Notes: generated from the sequence alone by a model not told the origin. 64,000 nucleotides of DNA from an uncultured Thermoleophilia bacterium (GCA_963702475.1 CAVPCT010000003.1:160001-224000); one strand, 5' to 3'; shown: positions 24,250 through 57,203, numbered from the stretch's first letter. Numbers and translations: made by a program.

Positions 24250-24636
24250 ATGGCCAGCAAGCGTCCCCGTCTCTCCCGGTCTTCGGACTTCCAGCGCATC
24301 TACAGGCAGGGGACGTCGACGGCCTCCCGCTTCCTCGTGCTCTACTCGTTCAAGCGCCCGCCTGAGGCGGGCGCAGAGGGGCCAAGACTGGGCCTGTCGG
24401 TCTCGAAGAAGCTGGGCGGCGCCGTCGTCCGCAACCGTGTCAAGCGTCTGCTCCGCGAGGCCGTGCAGGCCTGCGCGGGGCGGTTGGCTGAGGAGTACGA
24501 TCTCGTCGTGATCGCACGACCGCAACTGCTCGACCTCATCGCGCGCGAGAGCGTCGGTGAAAAGGGGCTGGTCGGCGAGGCCCTGCGGGAGCTCCTCGCG
24601 CGCGCCGGCGTGCTGCGGGAGGCGACCGAGGCGTGA
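24250..24636 (+). CDS. rnpA: Ribonuclease P protein component
   Basis: [25 protein letters not shown]. Confidence 0.95.
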
Positions 24637-24911
24637 AGGCCGTGCCCGGTGTGATCCTCATCGCGTTGATCAGGGTGTATCAGTACACGCTGTCGCCCAT
24701 GCTCGGCCAGCGCTGCAAGTACTATCCCTCGTGCTCCAACTACGCGATCGGCGCGCTGCGCGAGCACGGCGCCCTCCGCGGCATCGGGCTCGCGGCCTGG
24801 CGCCTTCTTCGCTGCAACCCGTTCACCAACGGCGGGTACGACCCGGTCCCCCCGCGCCACCCCGGCTGCGAGCACGACCATCCCGAGGCCAACGTGAGCG
24901 CGCATGTATAA
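24633..24911 (+). CDS. yidD: Membrane protein insertion efficiency factor YidD
   Basis: [25 protein letters not shown]. Confidence 0.93.
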
Positions 24912-26100
24912 CATCCCGGTCATCAGCCAGCTCATCCTGCTGCTGCACTGGGTCCTCGTCACCATCAACGACTGGCTGGCGTCCCTGGGGCTCGGCTCCA
25001 ACTGGACGTGGGGCCTCGCCATCATCGGCCTCACCATCATCGTCCGGCTCATCCTCTTCCCGCTCACGTGGAAGCAGTTCAGCTCGGCCCAGGCCATGCA
25101 GGCCATCCAGCCGCAGCTCAAGGAGCTGCAGAAGAAGTACAAGAGCGACCGCCAGAAGCTGCAGGCGGAGACCATGGCGCTCTACTCGGCGCACCGGGTC
25201 AACCCGTTCGCCTCGTGCCTGCCCATCATCCTGCAGCTGCCGGTCTTCATCGGCCTGTATGCGGCCATCAAGGGGCTCGGGCCCCTGGAGGCGCCGCAGT
25301 ACCAGGCGTCGGTCGAGGCCCTCAACCAGGCATCCTTCCTGTGGATCCCGCAGCTGGGACTGCCCGACCCGTACTACGTGCTGCTCGTCGTCTACGTCGT
25401 GTCCCAGCTGGTCTCCACCGAGCTCATGCTGGTCAATCAGACCGACAAGTCGCAGAAGATGATCATGCGGGCGATGCCCATCATCTTCGTGATCTTCCTC
25501 TGGAACTTCCCGGCGGGCCTCTTCGTGTACTGGGTCACCACCAACCTGTGGACGATCGGCCAGCAGCTGCTCATCCGCAAGGTGATGAAGCCGAAGACGG
25601 CGGAAGAGCTGCAGGCGCGGCCGGCGAAGCGCAGCCGCTTCATGGAGGCCATCGCCTCAGCGGGCGGCAAGGGCTCGCCGCAGACGCGCGAAGAGCTCGT
25701 CGCCAAGCAGCGCGCCGAGAAGGCTGTCGCGTCCGGCAAGGGCGGCTCCGGCAAGGCGCCCGTCAAGGCTCCGGCGAAGGGCGCCGGGGCGAAAACGGGC
25801 GCGAAGGGCGCCGGCTCGGGTCAGGCGGGTACGAAGAAGCCCGCCGGTCAGGCGGGCGCGAAGCAGGGGGCCGCCGCCCAGAGCGGTGCCGGCCAGGGTG
25901 CCGCCAAGAAGGGCGGCCAGACAGCGGGCCGCAAGCCGCCGCCGGGCAAGGGCAAGCGCAAGGCAAGCTCGCAGGGCGGGAGCGGCGGCCCCTCGGCGCA
26001 GCAGGGCGGCGGTGACGGCTCCCAGACGCAACGGGCCGGCAGCGAGAGCGCCCCGGCCCAGGGGCGGGGCACAGACGCGAGTGACACGGCTGGCGGCTGA
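24904..26100 (+). CDS. yidC: Membrane protein insertase YidC with long basic low-complexity tail
   Basis: [44 protein letters not shown]. Confidence 0.93.
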
Positions 26101-26145
26101 GCCGCCCGCCGCACCAACGCCACAGGTTGGCAAGCGGAGGCATCC

Positions 26146-26889
26146 ATGGCAGAGCCTGACGAGCTCCCGTCTCTCGACGACGGCGAGGAAGAGACCGAGT
26201 TCGCGACCATCGCCGCGGCCGGCACCATCGAAGAGGCGAAGCGAAAGGCGTTGGAGCAGCTCCGCAAGGTGGTCCCTCTGGTCAACGAAGCCGACGTTGA
26301 GTTCGTCGTCGTCGAAGAGGGCAGCAAGGGCGGCTTCTTCGGGCGTGGCAAGGCCGAGGCTCGCGTCGAGGCGCGCCTGCGGCCTGCGTCGGAGCGGGAG
26401 TCGGTCCCGGAAGACGACGGCAGCGAGGTGTCGGTGGGCGCCGAGGTGCTGCGGGACTTCGTGCAGACCACGGTCAGCCTCATGGGCATCGAGGCGCACG
26501 TGAGTGCGTTCGAGAGTGGCGAGGCGGTGCGCGCCGAGGTCAGTGGCGACGACCTGGGCCTGCTCATCGGCCGCCACGGGGCCACCATCGATGCGCTGCA
26601 GTACCTGGCCGCCATCGTGGTGAACGGCGACAGGCGTGACCGCCGGCAGGTGGTCGTCGACGCCGAGGGGTACCGCGCGCGGCGTGAGGCGGCGCTGGTC
26701 TCGCTGGCCGACCGCATGGCTCAGAAGGTCATGCGCGAGGGAACGCCCATCGCCCTGAAACCCATGACGGCCGCCGAGCGCAAGGTCGTGCACCTCCACC
26801 TCAAGGACCATCCGCGCGTGACGACGGCCTCCGAGGGCAGCGAGCCCTTCCGCGCCGTGGTCATCTCCCTGAGGCGACCCGACGCCTGA
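26146..26889 (+). CDS. jag: RNA-binding protein Jag/KhpB (EloR)
   Basis: Jag_N (KGGFFG), KH LIGRHGATIDALQ, R3H ERKVVH. Confidence 0.92.
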   Translation: MAEPDELPSLDDGEEETEFATIAAAGTIEEAKRKALEQLRKVVPLVNEADVEFVVVEEGSKGGFFGRGKAEARVEARLRPASERESVPEDDGSEVSVGAEVLRDFVQTTVSLMGIEAHVSAFESGEAVRAEVSGDDLGLLIGRHGATIDALQYLAAIVVNGDRRDRRQVVVDAEGYRARREAALVSLADRMAQKVMREGTPIALKPMTAAERKVVHLHLKDHPRVTTASEGSEPFRAVVISLRRPDA

Positions 26890-31461: not shown

Positions 31462-31549
31462 GCCGCCATCCGGCGGTCACGTCCCCGGCCGCACGGCGGA
31501 ACGGGGGCCTCGGCCGCCCGCTCCGCCGGCCTGTGATAGGTTGGCCCAC

Positions 31550-34441
31550 ATGTGCGGCATCTTCGGATTCGCGGGTCCACCCGACCGGCAGCTGCTCGGT
31601 CGCATGGCCGCAGCCCTCCTGCACCGCGGCCCCGACGACGCGGGCTCGTTCGAGGCGGCGGCGGTCAGCCTCGGGCACCGCCGGCTCAGCATCATCGACC
31701 GCGAGGGCGGCCACCAGCCGGTCGCGAACGAGGACGAGACCGTCTGGCTCGTGTACAACGGCGAGGTCTACAATTACCGCGAGCTGCGCACCGAGCTCGA
31801 GGCCTCCGGGCACCGCTTCCGCTCCCACTCCGACAGCGAGGTCATCGTCCACGCCTACGAGGAGTGGGGCCCCGGCTGCGCCGCGCGCTTCAACGGCATG
31901 TGGGCCTTCGCCGTGGCCGACCTGCGCGGCGCCGGGGCCGACGGTCGCGGCGGCAAGCTCGTCCTGAACCGCGACCACTTCGGCATCAAGCCGCTCTTCT
32001 ACGCACGTTCGCCGCGGACGGGGCGGCTGCTCTTCGCCAGCGAGATCAAGGCCCTGCTGCAGGATCCCGAGCTGGTGCCGCAGCCAGACGACCAGCTCCT
32101 GTTCGAGTACCTGCAGCACGGCTTTCACGACCATCGCGCCGAGACGTTCTTTCGCGGCGTGTATCACGTGCCGGCGGCCACGTGGATGGAGCTGCCCCTC
32201 GACGGCGCGGCCGGCGGCGCGCCGGACGAACGGGCCGCTGCGTCCGCGGAGGTGCCGGGCGGCGCCGGCGGCGAAGCCGCTCCGGCGCAGGCCTCCACCA
32301 CCCCGGGCCCGCTCACGTCGCCGCTGCCGAGCACGGCCTACTGGACGCCGGTGCTGGGCACCGACGGTGCCGGCGACCCGGCCGATTTCCGGCGCCGCTT
32401 TCGCGAGAGCGTCGAGCGGCGCCTCGTCTCCGAGGTGCCGGTGGGCTCGTGCCTCTCCGGCGGTCTGGACTCCACCACCATCGTCAGCTTCATGAGCGAG
32501 CTGCTGCAGGAGGACGTGCCCGACGCGGCGTCGCTGCGCGGGCAGCTCAAGACCTTCAGCGCCGTGTTCGACGGCGACCCCATCGACGAGCGCGAGTACA
32601 TCGAGACGGCTGTGGAGAGCACCGGCGCCGACACCACGTACACCAATCCCACCTCGCACGAGTTCATCGGCGAATTACGCGAGTTCGTCTGGCACCAGGA
32701 GGAGCCGATCGTCAGCACCGGCCCGTACGCGCAGTGGTGTGTGATGCGCAGCGCGCGCGAGCAGGTCACGGTGCTGCTGGACGGCCAGGGCGGCGACGAA
32801 CTGCTGGCCGGCTACGTGCCGTACCAGCTCGTCTACCTGCGCCAGCTGCGGCGCGAGGCCGAGTACGGCAAGCTGCGCGACGAAGCCCTGGACGCGCGCG
32901 ACGTGCTCTGGCCGCTGGCCAAGAGGCGCATCGGCCAGCGGCGCAAGCGTCTGCGGGTCCGGCGCCTGCTGCGCCCGTCGTTTCTCGCGCGCGTCAGCGA
33001 CCCCGGGTACGGGCGCTCCCAGGACGACCTCAAGGAGCGCCTGCTCCAGGACCTGCTCACCTACAGCCTTCCGTGTCTGCTGCGCTACGAAGACCGCAAC
33101 TCCATGGCGTTCAGCATCGAGAGCCGCGTGCCGTATCTGGACCAGGAGCTGGTGGACCACATCCTCAGCCTGCCCGAGGACGCCATCATCCGCGATGGCT
33201 GGAGCCGCTGGATCCTGCGCGCGGCGCTCAAGGGCACGCTGCCGGAGAGGATCCGTCTGCGGCGCTGGAAGGTCGGGTTCACCACGCCGGAGATGCGCTG
33301 GATCAAGGCGCGTCGTGCCGCCTTCACCAGCCTGTACCAGTCGCCCTCGTTCCAGGCGCGTCCGTACTGGGACGGCGCCGCCGTGGTCGCCGCGTTCCGC
33401 GCCTGCTGCCGCGGTGAGGTCGAGGAGAGCATGCTGTTCTGGCGCGCGGCCAACGTCGAGCTGTGGCTGCGCGAGTTCGTGGACCGCAGCGCTGTGCTGG
33501 AGGACGCCGATGTGGAGGCGGCGCTCACGGCGCCGGCCGCTGTGGGGCCGCGCTCTCGCGGCTCCCTGGCCGAGGCCGGTGACGCGCGCGTGCCGGCGCT
33601 GCTGGCGGCGGCCGCGGGCCCGCAGGGCCCCGCCGCGGCCGCCGAGGCGCAGCGCCTGCTCGCTGAGTTCGCGCCCAACGAGGAGAAGCACCTGTTCGGC
33701 GCGCTGGACGGCAGCGTCTGGGCGCGCCTGCCGCTCCGCACCGAACTTGTGAAGCGCGGCGACGACCTGGACGACCTGCTGCGTCGCCAGGTGCTGCCGC
33801 ATGTGCGGCCCGGCGACATCGTGGTGATGGCCGAGAAGCCCATCGCCGCCAGCCAGGGCCGCAGCTACGCGCTCGACGAGATCAAGCCGACGGCGCTCGC
33901 GAAGCTGCTCAGCCGGTCGGTGACCAAGACGCCGCACGGCATCGGACTGGGTATCCCCGAGACCATGCAGCTGGCCATCGACGAGGCCGGCGCTCCGCGC
34001 ATCGTCGCCGCCGCGGCCGTGTCGGCCGCCGGCAAGGCCGTCGGCAGGCGCGGCCTTTTCTACAAGGTCGCCGGCGCCGACGTGGAGGCCATCGACGGCC
34101 CCACCTGGAACACGCTGCCGCCACACAACACGCACGCCAAGCTCGGCCCCAAGGACCCGGACGGCGTTGCCGGCCATCTTGCCGCGCTGCTGTCCAATGC
34201 CGTCCACGGCCGTGTGGACTTCGTCGTCATCGACGCCAACGACCTGACGGCGACGGTGCTCGGCGCCTCCCCCGGCACCGACCGCGAGCTCGCGCGGACG
34301 TTGATGCGCGACAATCCGCTCGGCCAGGGCCACGAGCAGACGCCGGTGTGCGTGCTGCGCCCGCTCGGCCCACTGACCGCCGCAGGCGAGTCGACGAGCG
34401 GCGCCTCGCAGGCGCACCGCCCACCGCCCCCGCAGAGCTGA
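31550..34441 (+). CDS. asnB: Glutamine-dependent AsnB-type amidotransferase fused to a C-terminal CofE-like (F420-0:gamma-glutamyl ligase family) domain
   Basis: MCGI, HRGPD, NGEVYN, RDHFGIKPL, SGGLDS, GQGGDEL, RVPYLD; then PLRT..GDDL, GDIVVMAEK..SQGR, IDAND, GQGHEQTP. Confidence 0.88.
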   Translation: MCGIFGFAGPPDRQLLGRMAAALLHRGPDDAGSFEAAAVSLGHRRLSIIDREGGHQPVANEDETVWLVYNGEVYNYRELRTELEASGHRFRSHSDSEVIVHAYEEWGPGCAARFNGMWAFAVADLRGAGADGRGGKLVLNRDHFGIKPLFYARSPRTGRLLFASEIKALLQDPELVPQPDDQLLFEYLQHGFHDHRAETFFRGVYHVPAATWMELPLDGAAGGAPDERAAASAEVPGGAGGEAAPAQASTTPGPLTSPLPSTAYWTPVLGTDGAGDPADFRRRFRESVERRLVSEVPVGSCLSGGLDSTTIVSFMSELLQEDVPDAASLRGQLKTFSAVFDGDPIDEREYIETAVESTGADTTYTNPTSHEFIGELREFVWHQEEPIVSTGPYAQWCVMRSAREQVTVLLDGQGGDELLAGYVPYQLVYLRQLRREAEYGKLRDEALDARDVLWPLAKRRIGQRRKRLRVRRLLRPSFLARVSDPGYGRSQDDLKERLLQDLLTYSLPCLLRYEDRNSMAFSIESRVPYLDQELVDHILSLPEDAIIRDGWSRWILRAALKGTLPERIRLRRWKVGFTTPEMRWIKARRAAFTSLYQSPSFQARPYWDGAAVVAAFRACCRGEVEESMLFWRAANVELWLREFVDRSAVLEDADVEAALTAPAAVGPRSRGSLAEAGDARVPALLAAAAGPQGPAAAAEAQRLLAEFAPNEEKHLFGALDGSVWARLPLRTELVKRGDDLDDLLRRQVLPHVRPGDIVVMAEKPIAASQGRSYALDEIKPTALAKLLSRSVTKTPHGIGLGIPETMQLAIDEAGAPRIVAAAAVSAAGKAVGRRGLFYKVAGADVEAIDGPTWNTLPPHNTHAKLGPKDPDGVAGHLAALLSNAVHGRVDFVVIDANDLTATVLGASPGTDRELARTLMRDNPLGQGHEQTPVCVLRPLGPLTAAGESTSGASQAHRPPPPQS

Positions 34442-34499
34442 CGGCCGCACGCACGGTCGGCCGCAGAGGGCGCCCGACGGGCGTCAGCCGGCCGTGTCG

Positions 34500-35525
34500 C
34501 CCGCAGAGCCGCCAGAAGTGGTACCGGTTTTGGCCGGAGAGGGCGTCCCACGCCATGATGTCCGAGATGGCGAACGTCTCGAGCAGCACGCCTTCCTTGG
34601 CGGAGCTCACAGCCGACCGCCAGTCGCTCACGTTGGCGGCCCATGCCACGGCTCCGCTGTCGACTGCGAAGACGCGCGGCGACTTGACGAGCCGCTTGCC
34701 GACGTTGATGAAGAACGGCTGCAACAGCCGGATCTGGTACGCGACCTGCAGGAGGCTGAGGTAGCGATCGGTCGTCGAGTAGGAGAGGCCGGCGTGGGAG
34801 GCCAGATCGCTCTTGTTGAGAAGTCCGCCGCTGCGGAGCAGGGCAAGGGTCATCAGACGTCCGAACTCGGGCACGGAGGCGATCTCCGAGAGCTGACGCA
34901 GGTCGCGCTCGAGGAACGTCACGCGGTAGCCGTCGTACCAGGCGCGGCGTCTGGGCAGGTCGAGCCCGAGCGTGGCCGGCCTGCCGCCGGCCAGTGCGAG
35001 CTCCCGAGCCGCTTTGGCTGCCTCGGGTGCCGCCGCCGGGAGCACCTGCAGGTACTCCGCGGCGTTCGCGGCCGCGAGCGCCTGGTCGATGGTCGTCGGC
35101 CGCGGCACCCCGATGGACTCCGACCACGAGAGCGGCAGCAGCTCGAGATAGCCTGCGCGTCCGGCCAGGGATTCACTGACGGTGCGCATGCGGAGCAGGT
35201 TCGCGGAGCCGGTGAGGAGAAAGCGCCCGGGACGCTGATCCCGATCCACGGTGAGCTTGACCGCGCGCAGCAGATCGGGCGCGCGCTGCACCTCGTCGAT
35301 CACGGTCAGTCCCTCGGCGCCGGCCACCAGGCCGTCCGGGTCCGAGAGCGCGGCCGCGAGTGTGGCAGGTTCGTCGAGCGTCAGGTAGGTGCCGCCCACG
35401 CGGTCGAGGACCTGCCGCGCGAGCGTGGACTTGCCCACCTGCCTGGCGCCGGTGACGACGACAGCGCGCATGAAGCCGAGCTGCCACAGCACTGTATCGG
35501 TCGCATGCCGGGCCAGCGTCTTCAC
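34500..35525 (-). pseudogene. AAA_14/DUF4143 ATPase, C-terminally truncated
   Basis: TGARQVGKST, IDEVQR, LTGSA, ESLAGR, KRLVKSPR..DSG; similarity stops at YHFWR and the ORF then runs antisense into asnB. Confidence 0.65.
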
Positions 35526-35556: not shown

Positions 35557-35666
35557 TGCAGGCATGACTCAGGCTTGGACGGGCGGCGGGCACGTGCCCT
35601 AGTGACCGCCGCCCGCCCGTCGTGTATAACGAGGCTCGGCGTCGAGGCGGACGGGAGGAGCGGCCG

Positions 35667-36613
35667 GTGAGCATCGTCGCGGTCCACGACTTGAAGAAGC
35701 AGTACGACCCGCCCAAGGGTGTGGTGGCGGTGGACGGCGTCAGCTTCGACATCGCCGAGGGCGAGATCTTACAGCCTGCTGGGTCCCAACGGCGCCGGCA
35801 AGAGCACCACCATCTCCATGCTCTCCTGTCTCCTGCGGCCCAGCGGGGGGGACGCGACCGTCGCCGGGCACTCGGTCACGAGCGACGCGCGGGCGGTCAA
35901 GGAGCTCATCGGCGTCGTGCCCCAGGACATAGCCCTGTACCCGGACATGAGCGCCCGCGAGAACCTGGTGTTCTGGGGCAAGATGTACGGCCTCTCAGGG
36001 GCTGCGCTGCAGGCGCGCGTGGACGAGGTCCTCGAGCTCATCACGCTCACGGACCGGCAGAAGGACCGCGTGGAGAAGTACTCCGGCGGAATGAAACGGC
36101 GCGTGAACATCGGCGTGGCGCTGCTGCACAAGCCCAAGGTCCTGTACCTCGACGAGCCCACGGTCGGCATCGACCCGCAGAGCCGGCGCGTCGATCCTGG
36201 ACGGCATCCTGGCGCTGCGCGACCAGGGCATGACGATCCTCTACACCACCCACTACATGGCCGAGGCGCAGGAGCTCAGCGACCGCGTGGGCATCGTGGA
36301 CCACGGCAGGATGATCGCCACAGGCACGCACGAGGAACTCGTGCGGATCGTCGGCGAGGAGGCGCACGTGGACGTGCGCGTGGACCACTGCCTCGAGGGC
36401 ATGCTGGAGCGCTGGAGGCAGGTGGCCGGGGTCACCGACGCCTCGCTGGACGAGGATCACGGCGTCCTGCTGGTGCAGGACGCGAACGAGGTGCTGCCGC
36501 GGCTCTTCGAGGCCGCCGCTGCAGGCGGCTGCCGCATCACCGAGATCAACGTCACCGAGCCCAACCTCGAGATGGTGTTCCTGCATCTCACCGGTCGGGC
36601 GTTGCGTGAATGA
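35667..36613 (+). CDS. ABC-2 exporter ATP-binding protein (two +1 frameshifts at about 35771 and 36190)
   Basis: AVDGVSF / GPNGAGKST, YSGGMKRR, LDEPTVGIDPQ / YTTHYMAEA spread over three frames. Confidence 0.85.
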
Positions 36614-49700: not shown

Positions 49701-50654
49701 TCACTGGAAGCGCGCCACCACGACGGCGCCGGTCACGAGCAGGTTGACGAGGCTCAGCGGCAGCATCGCCTTCCAGCCCAGAGCCATGAGCTGGTCGTAG
49801 CGCGGCCGCGGGAAGGTGGCGCGCGCGATGATGAAGCAGCTGATGAAGATGAACGTCTTGATGAGGAACCACAGCCAGCCGGGCAGCCACGGTCCCAGCC
49901 AGCCGCCGAAGAACAGCGCGGTGATGAGCGCCGATATCAGGGTGATGGCCACGTACTCGCCGACCATGAACAGGCCGAACTTCATGCCCGAGTACTCGGT
50001 GTGGTAGCCGGCCACCAGCTCGCTCTCCGCCTCCACGAGGTCGAAGGGGATGCGCCGCGTCTCGGCCAGGGCGGCGACCACGAACACCACGAACCCGACG
50101 AACTGCGGGATCACGTACCAGACGCCCTGCTGTCCCTCCACGATGTCCTGCAGGTTGAAGCTCCCGGCCATGATGACGACGCCCACAAGCGAGAGCCCCA
50201 TGAAGACCTCGTAGCTCACCATCTGAGCGGCGGCGCGCAGGCCGCCGATGAGCGAGTACTTGCTGTGCGACGACCAGCCGGCAAGCACCACGCTGTACAC
50301 CGCCAGCGACGACATCGCGAGGATGAACAGCAGGCCGATGTTGATGTCGGCCACCACGACGCCCTGGTAGACCGGGACGACCATGAAGGACATCAGCGCC
50401 GTGATGAGCACGATGGACGGCGCCACGATGAACACGGCGCGGTCGGCGAACGGCGGCACCCAGTCCTCCTTGAAGAGGATCTTGAAGGTGTCGGCGAGCA
50501 CCTGCAGCAGGCCGGCGGGGCCGACGCGGTTGGGACCGAGGCGGTCCTGCACGAGGCCCAGCAGGCGCCGTTCGTACCAGATGAGGCCGGCGGCGACGGT
50601 CATCACCACGATGAGCACCCCGAGCACGGTGAGGAGCGACCAGTACCAGGCCAT
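49701..50654 (-). CDS. nuoH: NADH-quinone oxidoreductase subunit H
   Basis: [52 protein letters not shown]. Confidence 0.95.
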
Positions 50655-53562
50655 CACACGGCTCCCCACGTCTGCTGCGGCGGGGCCGGCGGGCGCGGCA
50701 CGATACGGCCGCGCGCCGGCAAGCGCGATGTAGGGCACGCGCGGCAGGCCGACGGGCACGCCGGCGACGCCGTCCGGCAGCGACGGCAGCATGCGGAACG
50801 TGGTGGCGAAGTCCATCCAGGGCAGCCAGAGCGTGACGGGGTCGCCGTCGGCGAGGCCGAGCGCGGCTGCCGCTGCCGCGTTGGCGGCGACGTACGGTTG
50901 CGGGGCGCGAGCGGCGATCCCGGGCTCGCGCATGCTCAGGTCGTCGCTGCCGAAGATGTGGTGCACCGGCACGAGGAGGAGCTCGCCGCCGGGGTGCGGC
51001 GCGAACGGCGGCGGGGCCGGCACGTCCTGCGGCCGGCCGGCGGAGCCGCCGCTGCCGCCGTGGTGCGCCCCGTCCAGCAGGCGCACGCCGCTCGGTCCGC
51101 CGCGCAGCGGGCCCAGGACCTCCTCCTGCAGCTTGTGCAGGCCGTTGTTGGAGTTCCAGCCCGGCGACCACACGCGCGTGAGCAGGGGCGCCGGGGACTC
51201 GCACGGCCGCAGGCCTTCGAGCGAGTAGGCGAGCGGCGCGTCGGCGTCCTGCGACGGCGCCGGCTCCCACATGGTGCGGTCGGCGTCGAGCGCCGTCCGT
51301 CCGCTGTTGCGCTGCGTCTGACGGGCCACCCGGCGTCCGTCCTGCCGCCAGCCGGGCGGCGGCGACGCCGCGGCGACGCCGCGGAACTGCGGCAGGTCGT
51401 GCTCGAGCGCGGCCAGCACGTCGACGTCGTCGACCCAGCCGCGCACCTCCTTGACGTCGCCGCGCAGCATGAGGTCGCGGAGCCAGCGCCACGCCTCCTG
51501 TGTGTCGTCCCGTGGCGGCAGCACCGCGAACGAGCGCTGCGCCCTGCCCTCGTTGTTGACGTAGGTGCCGGTCGAGTCGGCGAAGGTGGGCACGGGGAGC
51601 ACGACGTCGGCGTGGCCTGTGACGGTGTCCTCGAGCGCGGCCAGCACGAGCAGGTCGGGCGCGCGCCGCACCAGGTCGTCGACCAGGAGCGGCGCGGCGC
51701 GCCGGTACAGGTCGTTGCCGAGCATCGCGACCACGTCCACCTCGCCGCGGGCGACGGCGGCGATGGCGTGCGACAGGGGGCGTGCCTCCATCATGCGGAG
51801 CCCGACGCTGTCGACCTCGGGCGCCGTGAGGATGAGGCGGGCGGACTCGCGCGGGGCGGCGAGGACCTCGGCGCGCGGGCTCTCGCCGGGCGCGCCGGCG
51901 CCGCCGTCCGGCCCGACGCCGCCGGCCGGCACCGCTGTCTCGCGCGGCAGCGCGGCCGCCAGCCGCGCGGCCGCGCGCACGAGCGTCGCGGAGCCGCCGG
52001 TCGTGCCGCTGATCACGACAGCCTTGCGGCTGTCCCTCAGCGGTCCGGCCCAGCGCGCCACGCGCGCGCCCTCGTCCGCGGACAGGTCCGGCACCTCGGG
52101 CGCGGCCGGATCCAGCTCGTGCGCGAGCGCCAGCGCCAGACGGGCGATGTCGCCGGGCGTCGCGCGCCAGGCCTCGGCGGCGATCTCGTCGAGCTTGGTG
52201 GCGTACGGCGTCGCCAGCCACAGCTTGCTCGGCTCATGCCGTTTCGCGCGTCCGACGGCGGCGTCGTTCCAGCTGCGGATGTGCGTGCGCTGCTCCTGCG
52301 CCGTCGGCCGCAGCCGGTTCCAGGTGCGCACCATGAGGTCGGCGAGCGGCGCCGTGTTCGTCAGGTCCTCGCCGAGCACCAGCACCACGTCGGCGCCCTG
52401 CACGTCGCCGAGGGCGCCGAGCCGCAGGCCGCTGCGCGCGACCTCGAGCACGACGCCGACCAGCTCGTGGTCGGCGTCGGACATGCCGTCGTAGAAGCAC
52501 GCCGGCCCGACCAGCGTACGCAGTGCGTGGTTGGCCTCCAGCGGCGCCCGCGGCGAGCCGATGCCGATCACGCGGCGGCCCCGTACCAGCGCCGCCGCCG
52601 CGTCCAGGGCGCGGTCGCGCCGCTTCTCCACGGGCTCCTGCCCGCCCTCGGCGGTCGAGCACCGGCGGCCGCCACGCCACGCGCGCGGCGCGGACCCGCT
52701 CGGGCGCGTTGACGTACGCGTAGCCGAAGCGCCCGCGGTCGCAGAGCCACATCTTGTTCACGTCGAGGTTGTAGCGGCTCGTGATGCGCCGCAGCTCGCC
52801 GTACCGCGCCCCGGGGTGCACGTTGCAGCCCAGGCCGCAGTGCTGGCACACCGCCGGCGCCGTCTGCAGGTCCCACTTGCGCGAGTAGTGCTGCGCCAGC
52901 GTCTTGTCGGTGAACACCCCGGTGGGGCAGACCTCCACCAGGTTGCCGCTGAACTCGCTCTCCAGCGTGCCCGACGAGGCCCGCCCGAAGTACACCTGGT
53001 TGCGCGAGCCGAAGGGGCCGAAGTCGTGACCGCCGGCGTAGTCGTTGTAGAAGCGCGTGCAGCGGTAGCAGGTGATGCAGCGGTTCATCTCGTGCGCCAC
53101 GAACGGGCCCAGGTCCTGGTTGCGGAAGGTGCGCTTGAGCCCGTCGTACCGCCGGTAGGCGTGCCCGGTCATCACCGTCATGTCCTGCAGGTGGCACTCG
53201 CCGCCCTCGTCGCACACCGGGCAGTCGTGCGGGTGGCTGAGCATCATCAGCTCGATCATGCGGCGGCGGAACACCGTCGCCTCCTCGTCGAGGATCGAGA
53301 TCTTGATGCCCTCCTGCGCCTCGGTCATGCAGGCCATGGCCAGGTCGCTCTTCTCGCTGCCGTCGCGCGCCGTCCACCACAGGCGCACGGCGCACTGGCG
53401 GCAGGCGCCGATGGAGCCCATCACGGGGTGCCAGCAGAAGAAGGGCAGGTCGTAGCCGAGCGAGAGCGCGATGTCGAGCATGTTGCGCCCCGCCTCCACG
53501 CGGTGCTCGGTGCCGTCGATGACGACGGTGACGAGCTCGCCGGTGCCGCCGGTGCCGCTCAC
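50654..53562 (-). CDS. nuoG: NADH-quinone oxidoreductase subunit G (frameshift at about 52620-52690; 3' end reads in frame into nuoH)
   Basis: [50 protein letters not shown]; C-terminal half [12 protein letters not shown] lies in another frame. Confidence 0.9.
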
Positions 53563-54952: not shown

Positions 54953-55416
54953 GGGTACCTCCCCAGCACGCCGGGCACATCGGCCGGCGCCAGCGGCCCG
55001 TGCAGGTCCTTGTCCACCATGATCGCCGGCCCGCGGTCGCAGGCGCCCAGGCAGACGATGGGCAGCAGGGTGAAGCGGTCGTCGGGCGTGGTCTCGCCCA
55101 TGCCCACGCCGAGCTCCTGCTCGATGGCCTCGAGCAGCTCGGCGTACCCCAGCGACCAGCAGGCGAAGCTGTCGCACACCAGCACGATGTGGCGCCCGAC
55201 CGGCCGGCGGAAGAGCATGTTGCCGAACGTCGCCAGGCTGTCCAGCTCCTCGACGCTCATGCCGAGGAACGCGCCCGCGTCGGCCACGGCCTCGTCGGAG
55301 AGCCAGCGCCGCCGGACCTGCATGGCCTTGAGCACGCTGCCGGCCGCCGCCCGGCGGTCGGGGTAGTGCGTCACCACGGTCTCCAGCTCACGGCGCTCGT
55401 CGTCGCTCAGGCTCAC
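54949..55416 (-). CDS. nuoE: NADH-quinone oxidoreductase subunit E
   Basis: CDSFAC...CLGACDRGP. Confidence 0.93.
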
Positions 55417-57203
55417 CGGTCCACGTCTCCCATGACGAAGTCGATGCTGCCGAGGATCGTCACCAGGTCGGCGATCTCGAAGCCGCGTGTGAGCAGCGGC
55501 AGCACCTGCAGGTGCGCGAACGACGGCGTGCGGATCTTCGTGCGGTACGAGGTGTTCTCGCCGTCGCTGATGGCGTAGTAGCTGTACTGGCCTTTGGTGC
55601 CCTCGGTGTAGATGCAGGCCTCGCCGGGCGGCACCACGGGGCCCCAGGTGACGCCCAGGAAGTGCGTGATGAGCGTCTCGATGTCGTGCATGGTGGCCGG
55701 TTCCTTGGACGGCGGTGTGGCCAGCGGGTGGTGTGACTTGTGCGGGCCGTCCGGCATGTGGTCCACGCACTGGCGGATGATGCGCAGGCTCTGGCGCATC
55801 TCTTCCACCCTCACGGCGATGCGGTCGTAGCTGTCGCCGGCGGTGCCGACGGGGACGTCGAAGTCGAACCAGTCGTAGTGGCTGTACGGGCGCTGCTTGC
55901 GCCAGTCCCAGGGGTAGCCGGCGGCGCGCAGGTTGGCGCCGGTGACGCCCCACTCCACCGCGTCCTCCACGGAGATCGGCCCGACGCCGACGGTGCGTGC
56001 CTTGAGGATGCGGTTGTCCATGATGAGGCGGTCGTACTCGTCGAGGCGCGCCGGCAGGTAGTCCAGGTAGTCGCGCACGCCCTCTTCCCAGCCGTTCGGC
56101 AGGCTCTGGGCGACGCCGCCGATGCGGAACCAGTTGGGGTGCATGCGCGCGCCGCAGATGGGCTCGATGACCTGGTCGAAGATGCGCTCGCGGTCCTCGA
56201 ACGTGTAGAAGACCGGCGAGAGCGCGCCGACGTCCTGGGCGAAGGTGCCGTAGAACACCAGGTGGCTGGCGATGCGGAAGAACTCGGCCAGCATGACGCG
56301 GATGACCTGGGCGCGGTCAGGGACCTCGATCCCGCAGAGCTGCTCCACCGTGAGCACCCAGGGGAAGTTGTTGCCCACGCCGCTCAGGTAGTCGATGCGG
56401 TCGGTGTAGGGGATGAAGCGGTGCCACGTCTGACGTTCGCTGATCTTCTCGGCGCCGCGGTGATGGAAGCCGATGTCGGGCAGGCAGTGGACGATCTCCT
56501 CGTCGCGCAGGCCCACGATGACGCGGAACGGGCCGTGGGTGGCGCCGTGCTGCGGCCCGATGTTGAGGTACATGAGCGTGGGGTCGTCCTCGGCGCTCGG
56601 CAGGCCCCACTTCTCGGGCGTGAAGCGCAGGTCCTCCATCCAGTCCTGGTACTGCTCCTCGGGCGCCTCGAACGGCCCGTACTCGGTGCCGCGGGCGGGG
56701 TGCTCCTTGCGCAGCGGGTGGCCCTTCCACCACGGCGGCATGAGGATGCGGCGCAGGTCGGGGTGGCCCTCGACGTGGATGCCGAACATGTCCCAGACCT
56801 CGCGCTCGTACCAGCCGGCGGCCGGCCAGAGGGGCGTGACGGATGCGATGGTCGGCGTGTCGCCGGCGAGCGCCACCTTGAGGCGCAGGTCGGCGTTCCG
56901 CTCGTAGGAGACGAGGTGGTAGAAGACGCTGAAGTCGGCCGCGGGCAGGCCGGCGCGGTGGGCGCGGTAGCGTTCGTCCACCGCGCCGAGGTCGTAGAGG
57001 AAACGGAAGGGGCGCTCGGCCTCGTGCTTCAGGTAGCCGAGCGCCTCGCGCACCAGGTCCTTCGACAGCCAGGCGGTCGGGATGCCGTCGGCGGTGACCT
57101 GCCCCGTCAGCTCCGCGCCGGGGAAGCGGGCGCGGAGCTCGTCGAGCACGTCCGCGGCCGCGGCGGCCGGCGTGGCGCCCGGTGTCTGCGTCGCGGCCGC
57201 CAC
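55413..57203 (-). CDS. nuoC: Fused NADH-quinone oxidoreductase subunit C/D
   Basis: [18 protein letters not shown] in frame with [16 protein letters not shown], final DVDR. Confidence 0.95.

Follow-up and report, generated by a model that had tools for sequence, protein, structure and literature searches.

Formation of an amide by a ligase, followed by the action of an AsnB-family amidotransferase on its product, is known from two enzyme pairs: Aslfm and AsnH, which take a D-Asp cross-bridge to D-iso-Asn, and the Ngg ligase/acetyltransferase and AsnO, which make N-acetylglutaminylglutamine amide. In both pairs the ligase is an ATP-grasp enzyme encoded by a separate gene. On peptidoglycan precursors, the D-Glu alpha-carboxyl of lipid II is reported to be amidated by MurT/GatD (PMC3266927), and diaminopimelate (DAP) on lipid intermediates by LtsA (PMC7920481). 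The gene analysed here, at 31550..34441 on the plus strand of a 64,000-nucleotide stretch of DNA from an uncultured Thermoleophilia bacterium (GCA_963702475.1, CAVPCT010000003.1:160001-224000; hereafter the window), would follow a comparable logic in a single polypeptide. Together, its two N-terminal domains make up a complete AsnB-type, glutamine-dependent amidotransferase, with the same two-domain architecture as the meso-DAP amidotransferases LtsA, AsnB and AsnB1. By contrast with these characterised enzymes, none of which has a CofE-like domain, it continues into a domain of the CofE fold; the ligase candidate thus differs from Aslfm and Ngg in fold and in being joined to the amidotransferase. 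This domain belongs to a distinct, uncharacterised CofE-fold subfamily which, as a whole, is linked to cell-wall genes and for which a role in F420 synthesis is very unlikely. We tentatively propose that the fusion may act in the cytoplasm and tailor, in two steps, the carboxylates left free on the stem peptide of peptidoglycan, a reading which fits the ligate-then-amidate idea of a preliminary description of this DNA. In the literature searched, no description was found of an AsnB-CofE fusion or of a cell-wall-linked CofE homologue.

The gene is an uninterrupted open reading frame (ORF) of 963 residues with a single terminal stop. The ATG at 31550 was preferred over an alternative TTG start at 31541 in the same frame because it yields the Met-Cys start required by Ntn (class II) glutamine amidotransferases, in which the N-terminal Cys follows straight after the initiator Met. 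GC content by codon position is 0.73/0.50/0.93 in the fusion ORF, the window as a whole being at 71% GC, and the high third-position value (GC3) indicates that the fusion frame is coding. The features of the gene are as follows, AF2 standing for AlphaFold2 and pLDDT for its predicted local distance difference test score.

31550..34441 (including stop), plus strand: whole gene, AsnB-type amidotransferase with CofE-like domain (P0001), 963 aa; Pfam, NCBIfam, GC3 0.93, AF2

31550..32197, plus strand: class II (Ntn) glutaminase domain, residues 1-216, with the catalytic Cys after Met; PF13537, PF13522, MCGIFGF N-terminus

32198..32335, plus strand: low-complexity Ala/Gly/Pro-rich insert between glutaminase and synthetase, about residues 217-262, predicted disordered; pLDDT

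32387..33472, plus strand: Asn_synthase (adenylating synthetase) domain, residues 280-641; PF00733, TIGR01536, SGGLDS at 303-308, GQGGDEL at 412-418

33482..33667, plus strand: predicted helical connector, residues 645-706; AF2 helices, sequence weakly conserved

33674..34372, plus strand: CofE-like domain, residues 709-941, of a distinct F420_ligase-superfamily subfamily; PF01996, AF2, Foldseek, VIA-align, hhalign

34373..34438, plus strand: Pro/Ser-rich C-terminal tail, residues 942-963, unconserved, predicted disordered; pLDDT below 50 for 946-963

The preliminary description had recognised one uninterrupted frame with a complete Ntn-glutaminase/synthetase, and profile searches bear this out. 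GATase_7 (PF13537) matches residues 43-171 (1.9e-45), GATase_6 (PF13522) the overlapping residues 28-165 (9.5e-39), and Asn_synthase (PF00733) residues 280-641 over positions 2-354 of its 354 (1.5e-71, 242 bits). Residues 729-897 match F420_ligase (PF01996) with 50.8 bits, above its cut-off of 25 (2.1e-13; positions 2-150 of the 218 in the profile). The motifs that the preliminary description had named in both parts are all present in the translation, namely the MCGIFGF N-terminus, SGGLDS and GQGGDEL, and, in the C-terminal domain, PLRT..GDDL, DIVVMAEK..QGR, IDAND and GQGHEQTP; this domain, which it had placed from about 33715, starts near residues 709-729 (nucleotides 33674-33734). The Ala-rich linker fared differently: the stretch is there, at residues 645-706, but it is predicted to form packed helices (655-660, 673-679, 681-688 and 690-706; mean pLDDT of 88-95 in 10-residue blocks across 641-710) and no floppy linker. 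The full-length model, built with 69 fused homologues, has a mean pLDDT of 88.9 and a predicted template-modelling score of 0.89, and its low-confidence stretches are confined to residues 220-249, 575-578, 794-797 and 946-963. The first of these, with pLDDT below 50, lies in the Ala/Gly/Pro insert, where the alignment of fused homologues has no consensus; the last lies in the Pro/Ser tail, unmatched by homologues, which terminate shortly past an '...IVR' motif.

Concern that the junction might be an assembly artefact, raised in the same description, is answered by its conservation. When proteins of 529-1686 aa were searched with residues 660-963, at least 595 relatives reached E<=1e-3 among 8000 scored candidates (these relative searches reached their size limits). 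PF00733, PF13522, PF13537 and PF01996 are all carried by 112 of the 120 relatives listed, the remaining eight (548-852 aa) being truncated forms with PF00733 and PF01996. In contigs sampled at one genome per species, a relative is encoded by 586 of the 604 stretches matched, from which 77 distinct loci were retained. Both halves are covered in 19 of these (matches extending to residue 932 or beyond), 57 match residues 1 to about 690 only, at 35-43% identity, and correspond to unfused AsnB-like genes of methanogens, Patescibacteria and others, and one is cut by a contig end. By record title, the two-half loci come from Thermoleophilia, Actinomycetota/Actinomycetes and Acidimicrobiales/Acidimicrobiaceae metagenome-assembled genomes (MAGs) and from one 'Deltaproteobacteria' contig; every fused gene found is from a MAG. 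Acidimicrobiia-type fusions are 49-53% identical to the window protein over residues 1-940. In a quick maximum-likelihood tree of 133 C-terminal domains (273 minus near-duplicates and partial or unclassified architectures), AsnB-fused domains fall into two groups, one of 15 rows, 11 of them fused (Shimodaira-Hasegawa-like approximate likelihood-ratio test 98), and one of 40 rows, 35 of them fused, in which some 'stand-alone' rows of either group may be fragments. With the junction conserved in relatives and the full-length model confident, an assembly artefact or chimeric ORF was rejected. The 'Deltaproteobacteria bacterium' contig (L010, JBLMXT010000218.1) carries a fusion 85% identical to the window gene and is probably a mis-binned Thermoleophilia contig.

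Judged from sequence and fold, the C-terminal domain is a true CofE homologue with a remodelled active site, and a putative ligase. Its closest described relatives are CofE and FbiB's N-terminal domain (PF01996, TIGR01916; PDB 2PHN, 2G9I, 7ULD), which share its fold and are its sole match in the PDB. With the domain-only AF2 model (pLDDT 89.6), Foldseek retrieved only A. fulgidus CofE (E 4e-11, TM 0.55-0.60; next E 0.39), and VIA-align, over 48,161 chains, retrieved 2phn_A at Z 15.0 (root-mean-square deviation 3.0 over 186 aligned residues), no other chain exceeding Z 4.5. This fold match extends over the whole domain, though the Pfam match covers two thirds of its profile. In line with this, the profile of a 58-sequence subfamily alignment (A2) matched CofE only among PDB sequences (26 bits), and hhalign against 14 true actinobacterial CofE/FbiB domains gave a probability of 98% (E 3e-13), at a sequence identity to CofE of 20-25%. 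Strong purifying selection acts on the C-terminal domain, in which many polar residues are invariant; the subfamily alignment contains 29 invariant and 27 nearly invariant columns, and the subfamily motifs are PNxxK, R..P.RT, (S/A)EK..A..QGR, T(K/R)TPHGIGLG.P.TM.LA..EAG, RG.FY..AG, AIDGPT..TLPP.N, KDPD, IDAND, LG and DNPLGQG.EQTP. GIGLG, AIDGPT, PP.N and DNPLGQ, in these, are specific to the subfamily and are not found in CofE.

In an exhaustive profile search of 1.84 billion representatives, 1613 proteins passed E<=1e-3 and 972 passed E<=1e-10, while the strictest threshold, E<=1e-30, left 401 representative clusters. A search among shorter proteins found stand-alone relatives of about 230 aa, at 48-54% identity, in Microbacterium, Armatimonadota, Thermotogae and Actinomycetota. 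All the organism names among the 15 listed for one 148-member cluster are Microbacterium (isolates and unclassified strains), under the product name 'coenzyme F420-0:L-glutamate ligase', and in the ESM Atlas the stand-alone protein retrieved nothing but its own kind, from clusters that carry the labels F420 ligase or Asn synthase.

Residues were compared with CofE at family-invariant positions, using A. fulgidus numbering recovered from sequence alignment. PGD, K41 (the Lys of (S/A)EK), E82, R85, G101, G108 and P-x-DPD are kept. So is D150, which corresponds to the Asp of IDAND in HMMER alignments, HMMER and global hhalign disagreeing by two residues on the IDAND residue that matches it. R49 (GR), which is consensus and not invariant in the 14 true CofE domains, is kept as well; E208, which with D109, D150 and T151 may bind the metals of CofE, is a Lys in actinobacterial CofE. 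Other elements are lost: an 11-residue gap in the global hhalign alignment removes the CofE-invariant G-R-x-W/F-R-x-G (A. fulgidus G153-C155), a gap of about 22 residues removes a CofE helix with an invariant A-D-E, and subfamily members, which end 3-10 residues past '...IVR', have no counterpart of the CofE tail with R234. According to a structural account, A. fulgidus CofE holds the F420 chromophore (isoalloxazine) through G153-C155 and R234 of the partner chain (PMC10861534), so that the ring-holding elements are deleted in the subfamily.

The F420 role suggested by the annotation was rejected on these deletions, on profile scores and on gene content. The CofE equivalog TIGR01916 scores 26.8 bits with the whole protein and 33.3 bits with the domain alone, far under its cut-off of 180.65, and NF009809 scores 22-28 bits against a cut-off of 274. 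The assembly to which the window belongs (4.31 Mb, 9 contigs, 93.8% complete, 6.5% contamination) contains the fusion gene as its sole PF01996 match. The preliminary description had seen no F420 genes in the window, and this extends to the whole 4.31-Mb assembly, in which CofD (TIGR01819) and CofC (PF01983) have no match and FO synthase has none over cut-off. Absence of the F420 pathway from the genome is therefore likely, although not proven at 93.8% completeness, and a setting in which the domain would only glutamylate F420 beside a full cof pathway was not found. True CofE clears its cut-off in 74 of 121 Actinomycetota genomes sampled, a figure that includes genomes flagged unpublished (G001, G018, G048, G082, G088, G120). 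In four genomes (G025, G098, G109, G120) the CofE-like gene is an additional paralogue besides a true CofE, and three (G002, G019, G034) have the CofE-like gene only; CofD clears its cut-off in one of the five CofE-like carriers checked (G372). The subfamily thus also occurs in genomes without the F420 pathway, and the evidence says that its annotation as 'coenzyme F420-0:L-glutamate ligase' is wrong. Two CofH-like hits of the assembly, just under the CofH cut-off, are MqnE (479.6 against 434.55 bits) and MqnC (486.6 against 428.1 bits). They are adjacent at G000:C5:795827-799433 (L002, L003), which points to futalosine-route menaquinone synthesis, and could be mistaken for FO-synthase genes. 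The one genome of the same genus in the sample (G355) is listed at 1.8 Mb in 2 contigs and 98% completeness; the present bin (G000) may mix organisms, or the listed sizes may be oddly rounded.

Homology to CofE also raises the wider idea that the domain glutamylates a cofactor tail, be it of F420, folate or a pterin. A precedent exists in chlamydial FolC2 (CT611), a CofE homologue whose substrate is not F420 and whose genome lacks cof genes; it acts as a dihydrofolate/folylpolyglutamate synthase in place of FolC and is reported to complement an E. coli folC mutant (PMC1971073). A formaldehyde-activating enzyme gene about 2 kb downstream in one locus (L024) could be read in the same sense. Unlike the FolC2 case, the window genome has a canonical FolC (TIGR01499, 278.2 bits against 162.65), which leaves a FolC2-like role unneeded, the gene has no folate gene context, and TIGR04132 (putative folate gamma-glutamate ligase) has no match to the window domain at E<=0.01; a FolC2-like role was rejected on the FolC and TIGR04132 results. 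With no further F420 genes found, the ring-binding segments deleted and the paralogue pattern reported above, a cofactor-tail function is highly improbable.

The genes around the subfamily point elsewhere. From metagenomes, 594 matched stretches yielded 505 relatives and 80 loci, of which 47, including 13 AsnB fusions, were analysed after setting aside 19 close relatives of the window gene (L148-L161, L165-L169), 13 short contigs and L188; part of the neighbour genes was scanned, in ORFs called by a simple script. In seven loci (L213, L214, L199, L180, L225, L191, L219), murJ lies directly downstream on the same strand. MurJ was called by Pfam in the first five of these, the L199 neighbour clears the MurJ equivalog cut-off (241.3 against 235.55 bits), and those of L191 and L219 are 72% and 78% identical to the L199 MurJ (BLAST). 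These murJ-linked loci cover GC contents of 0.36-0.37 (L213, L214) and 0.65-0.68; in L214 (1645-3771, plus strand; contig GC 0.37), a GNAT domain is fused to the MurJ N-terminus and its start overlaps the stop of the CofE-like gene. One strand of L195 carries, in order, a flippase (Polysacc_synt; Wzx/MurJ-like), an AsnB-CofE fusion and a class A penicillin-binding protein (PBP). Another class A PBP neighbours the gene in L212, and an Amidase_3+PG_binding_1 protein does so in L201. Microbacterium-type loci show the order sigma70, CofE-like gene, (MurJ), ATP-grasp ligase(s) and alanine racemase, with the sigma-70 gene upstream in seven loci (81-99% identity) and ATP-grasp ligase genes in seven. 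The stand-alone CofE-like gene of L226 adjoins parB. Among the stand-alone loci with neighbours scanned, none has an unfused AsnB beside the CofE-like gene.

Fusions within the subfamily carry a similar signal. Among 25 representatives of unusual length, six are fused to Amidase_3 (MurNAc-L-Ala amidase), one each to Peptidase_M20 (P0244), GNAT (P0243), adenylate kinase, TPR repeats and a CDP-alcohol phosphatidyltransferase (P0289), and 14 contain PF01996 alone. The Amidase_3-CofE-like fusion is real: in one 25-member cluster, 11 of the 15 members listed have the 539 aa of the representative, on separate contigs. Inspection by eye showed no signal peptide in the Amidase_3 fusions; an amidase homologue that is cytoplasmic is known in CwlM. 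Two further proteins (P0327, P0353) have an N-terminal membrane anchor whose flanking charges, by eye, suggest a cytoplasmic catalytic domain.

Some neighbours would suit an enzyme that tailors, in place of peptidoglycan, a different lipid-linked component of the envelope, for example a phospholipid head group, a teichoic/teichuronic-type polymer or a polysaccharide repeat unit. In Acidimicrobiia-type loci L022, L023 and L030, LysR and HAD-PlsC acyltransferase genes precede the fusion, the acyltransferase immediately upstream, as also in L190. The phosphatidyltransferase fusion P0289 has four cluster members, a PAP2 phosphatase and a GT2 glycosyltransferase neighbour the gene in L207 and L196, the L195 flippase scores as Wzx-like and not as the MurJ equivalog, and an ABC-2 exporter lies downstream in the window. 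We nevertheless consider this decidedly unlikely, since the L199 neighbour passes as MurJ, the class A PBPs, the Amidase_3/PG_binding_1 links and the MurT pattern described below are peptidoglycan-specific, and the HAD-PlsC link is limited to one clade and may be plain synteny.

MurT/GatD follows the logic proposed here for the fusion, with a carboxylate-activating ligase homologue and a glutaminase acting on a lipid-linked stem peptide (PMC3266927). The two systems are not homologous: MurT/GatD combines a Mur-ligase homologue with a class I glutaminase, whereas the fusion has a CofE fold, a class II Ntn glutaminase and an adenylating synthetase domain of its own. They rarely co-occur in Actinomycetota. 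Among 401 genomes of this phylum, 24 have the CofE-like gene, 175 have MurT_C (PF08353) and two have both (G153, G168), MurT_C being present in 2 of 24 CofE-like carriers against 173 of 377 others, or 2 of 19 against 102 of 229 by genus; the carriers include G120 and G174, and the 175 include G088 and G318, all flagged unpublished. Naive Fisher p values of 1.8e-4 (genomes) and 3.3e-3 (genera) overstate this pattern, as genomes that are related do not count as independent. The window genome gave no MurT_C match. Within its class, MurT occurs in 27 of 27 genomes of families f2, f4, f5, f6, f7 and f8, in neither of the two genomes of its own family, and in none of three in f3, which also lacks the CofE-like gene. 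In f35 the sole carrier (G185) lacks MurT and the eight other members listed have it; in f45 the carrier G114 lacks it, and G168 and at least nine others have it. In G168 the two are adjacent, a 741-aa MurT (Mur_ligase_M, MurT_C)-GatD (GATase_3) fusion (L118:5479-7704, plus strand) being convergent with the CofE-like gene.

The AsnB module raises the question of an ordinary asparagine synthetase with an accessory CofE-like domain (regulatory, oligomerising or with unrelated catalysis) and no shared substrate. With TIGR01536, the model for glutamine-hydrolysing asparagine synthase, the protein reaches 410 bits, where the cut-off is 267.1. Across the 69 fused homologues, residues of the glutaminase and the PP-loop are conserved, R44/R45, N70-G71-E72 and D95 being invariant or nearly so. 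Among solved structures, the hydroxyamidotransferase 7YLZ and E. coli AsnB (1CT9) come closest, the nearest unfused relatives are the generic AsnB-like genes of methanogens and Patescibacteria at 35-43% identity, and the window context is housekeeping. Other features argue against plain asparagine synthesis. No AsnRS over cut-off was found in the genome, so that Asn-tRNA is probably made by transamidation and free Asn would be unneeded for translation, and at least two further AsnB-family loci are present. Of K376, D384 and R387, which we take to be the aspartate-binding residues of E. coli AsnB, phmmer against 1ct9_A aligns the first two with Asp501 and Cys509 and the third with Arg512, in a weak segment of 13.6 bits. 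According to a Listeria AsnB study, homologues that amidate mDAP have an extra loop and are without the conserved D and R that bind Asp (PMC8554201); judged from that weak 13.6-bit alignment, the fusion may share with this group the loss of one such position. Moreover, the C-terminal domain is strongly conserved, also exists as a stand-alone enzyme-like protein, and has been retained in fusions down to about 50% identity, over deep divergence. The module looks like one that may not make Asn, and an ordinary asparagine synthetase seems quite unlikely. The other AsnB genes of the assembly (G000:C5:1056973-1058029 and G000:C1:261591-262779; L085-L088) are each split over two frames, the first piece of the C5 copy scoring 447 bits with TIGR01536; both splits are probably assembly indels, which this assembly probably also has in other genes, or the copies may be pseudogenes.

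From the gene context of the subfamily, we infer that the fusion could act on a peptidoglycan precursor, one of the acceptor classes offered by the preliminary description; of these, peptidoglycan is the one favoured by the murJ, PBP and amidase neighbours, the Amidase_3 fusions and the rare co-occurrence with MurT. Its substrate would be cytoplasmic or lipid-linked (UDP-MurNAc-peptide, lipid I or lipid II), before flipping by MurJ, and thus of the class on which LtsA and AsnB1 act. The glutaminase, with its Ntn Cys, would release NH3, and the PP-loop synthetase would adenylate a carboxylate. The C-terminal domain, by analogy with CofE, would use a nucleoside triphosphate to activate one carboxylate and join it to an amine, either an amino acid or possibly NH3; its likeliest target would be the alpha-carboxyl of D-iso-Glu, the position amidated elsewhere by MurT/GatD. 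The AsnB module would amidate a second carboxylate, which may be the epsilon-carboxyl of diaminopimelate, as with LtsA/AsnB1, or that of the newly joined residue. Since the three domains are predicted to pack rigidly, one bound precursor may undergo both reactions.

Several observations weigh against this reading. Ligase activity is an assumption because several CofE-invariant residues are changed or deleted: besides the gaps described above, K45 is replaced by A or I and E47 by Q, and in-register conservation of G-V-D-A-S-N is lost. The AsnB part clears a generic asparagine-synthase equivalog cut-off, and the alignment under the Asp-binding residues is the weak one reported above. Peptidoglycan neighbours occur in one of the 13 AsnB-fused metagenome loci (L195), the others adjoining genes for GNAT, HAD-PlsC acyltransferase, GGDEF-EAL, peptidases, permeases or SAM synthetase, so that the peptidoglycan context stems largely from members that stand alone or are fused to something else. 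Unrelated neighbours are also frequent in stand-alone loci. The window holds no cell-wall neighbours of the fusion gene, the murJ of its own genome being on another contig. The MurT pattern is confounded by phylogeny, as several carrier lineages are generally without MurT (4 of 21 in f18, 2 of 26 in f9, 0 of 3 in f10); two genomes hold both genes, and true CofE, taken as a control, is likewise less frequent among carriers (4 of 11, compared with 70 of 110).

Some of these neighbours would suit synthesis of a soluble amide or peptide, the CofE-like domain ligating an amino acid to a small carboxylate and the AsnB module amidating the product, much as Ngg and AsnO do. In L181 and L176 the gene directly upstream of the AsnB-CofE fusion encodes a GNAT, the subfamily includes the GNAT and M20 peptidase fusions mentioned above, an ArgE/DapE-family deacylase lies four genes off in the window, and peptidases or amino-acid permeases neighbour the gene in L164, L170 and L224. 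TIGR03104 (N-acetylglutaminylglutamine amide amidotransferase) gives a partial score of 282 bits, which is, however, far under its cut-off of 570. Such a product appears on the whole unlikely, since it leaves unexplained the repeated murJ, PBP and amidase links, the Amidase_3 fusions, the membrane-anchored P0327 and P0353 and the phosphatidyltransferase fusion P0289, and no conserved pathway partner was seen across lineages.

A bolder version of the peptidoglycan proposal, which we regard as doubtful, would make the CofE-like subfamily an unrecognised group of peptidoglycan-precursor ligases at the D-iso-Glu alpha-carboxyl, and the fusion a non-orthologous replacement of MurT/GatD and LtsA together. 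One Ntn glutaminase would then feed ammonia to a phosphorylating CofE-like domain and an adenylating AsnB domain, and a single polypeptide would amidate or substitute both free carboxylates of lipid II. Microbacterium has a B-type peptidoglycan, with its cross-bridge on the D-Glu alpha-carboxyl, and Micrococcus luteus carries a glycine at this position. The Microbacterium stand-alone form, together with the neighbouring ATP-grasp ligases, could thus be the long-missing starter of a B-type cross-bridge.

Around the fusion gene, the window contains upstream rnpA, yidC, jag/KhpB, a lipoprotein gene, a 502-aa gene of unknown kind, a DUF2007 protein and a divergent gene which encodes Nfo endonuclease IV and no sugar isomerase. 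Downstream lie the ABC-2 exporter, the ArgE/DapE-family deacylase and a DUF6951 protein, and the rest of the window holds respiratory-chain and assorted genes. This synteny is common to up to 11 Thermoleophilia-type loci and to none of four Acidimicrobiia-type loci; it therefore looks plainly phylogenetic and gives no functional lead. The row of rnpA, a small ORF, yidC and jag/KhpB at 24250-26889 is the usual origin-proximal cluster, which places the fusion gene about 5 kb from the likely chromosome origin region. About 1.1 kb between the fusion stop and the ABC transporter is missing in related loci: of 11 Thermoleophilia-type loci compared, 7 match this segment, and over its last 67-149 bases only, so that it may have been inserted in this lineage alone. 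In it lies a 432-aa ORF at 34227-35525 on the minus strand (GC3 0.84), whose N-terminus resembles a P-loop ATPase (GARQVGKST) and whose 3' end overlaps the last 215 or so nucleotides of the fusion gene. The ABC transporter ATPase is split over two frames at 35622-36609 by a frameshift or an assembly indel, its N-terminal part up to just before Walker A being in the frame 35622-36233 and Walker A (LLGPNGAGKST) with the rest in 35719-36609. A 976-aa ORF at 49701-52631 on the minus strand matches Molybdopterin-oxidoreductase (NuoG-like) at 289-388 and NADHdh (subunit H) at 669-967, and may be a NuoG-NuoH fusion or a two-gene read-through; the ORF at 55413-57203 is a NuoC-NuoD fusion.

Hundreds of subfamily proteins, including those of cultured Microbacterium, are at present annotated as F420-0:L-glutamate ligase or as plain asparagine synthase, and the stand-alone members in these easily grown and non-pathogenic bacteria make the family directly testable. 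To our knowledge, the CofE fold has so far been known only for F420 and, in Chlamydia, folate. MurT/GatD-type modification governs cross-linking and the sensitivity of Gram-positive bacteria to lysozyme and beta-lactams. If the cell-wall reading is true, the subfamily would be a new enzyme family tailoring the peptidoglycan stem peptide and a second evolutionary solution to this modification, and it would extend CofE-fold chemistry past cofactor tails.

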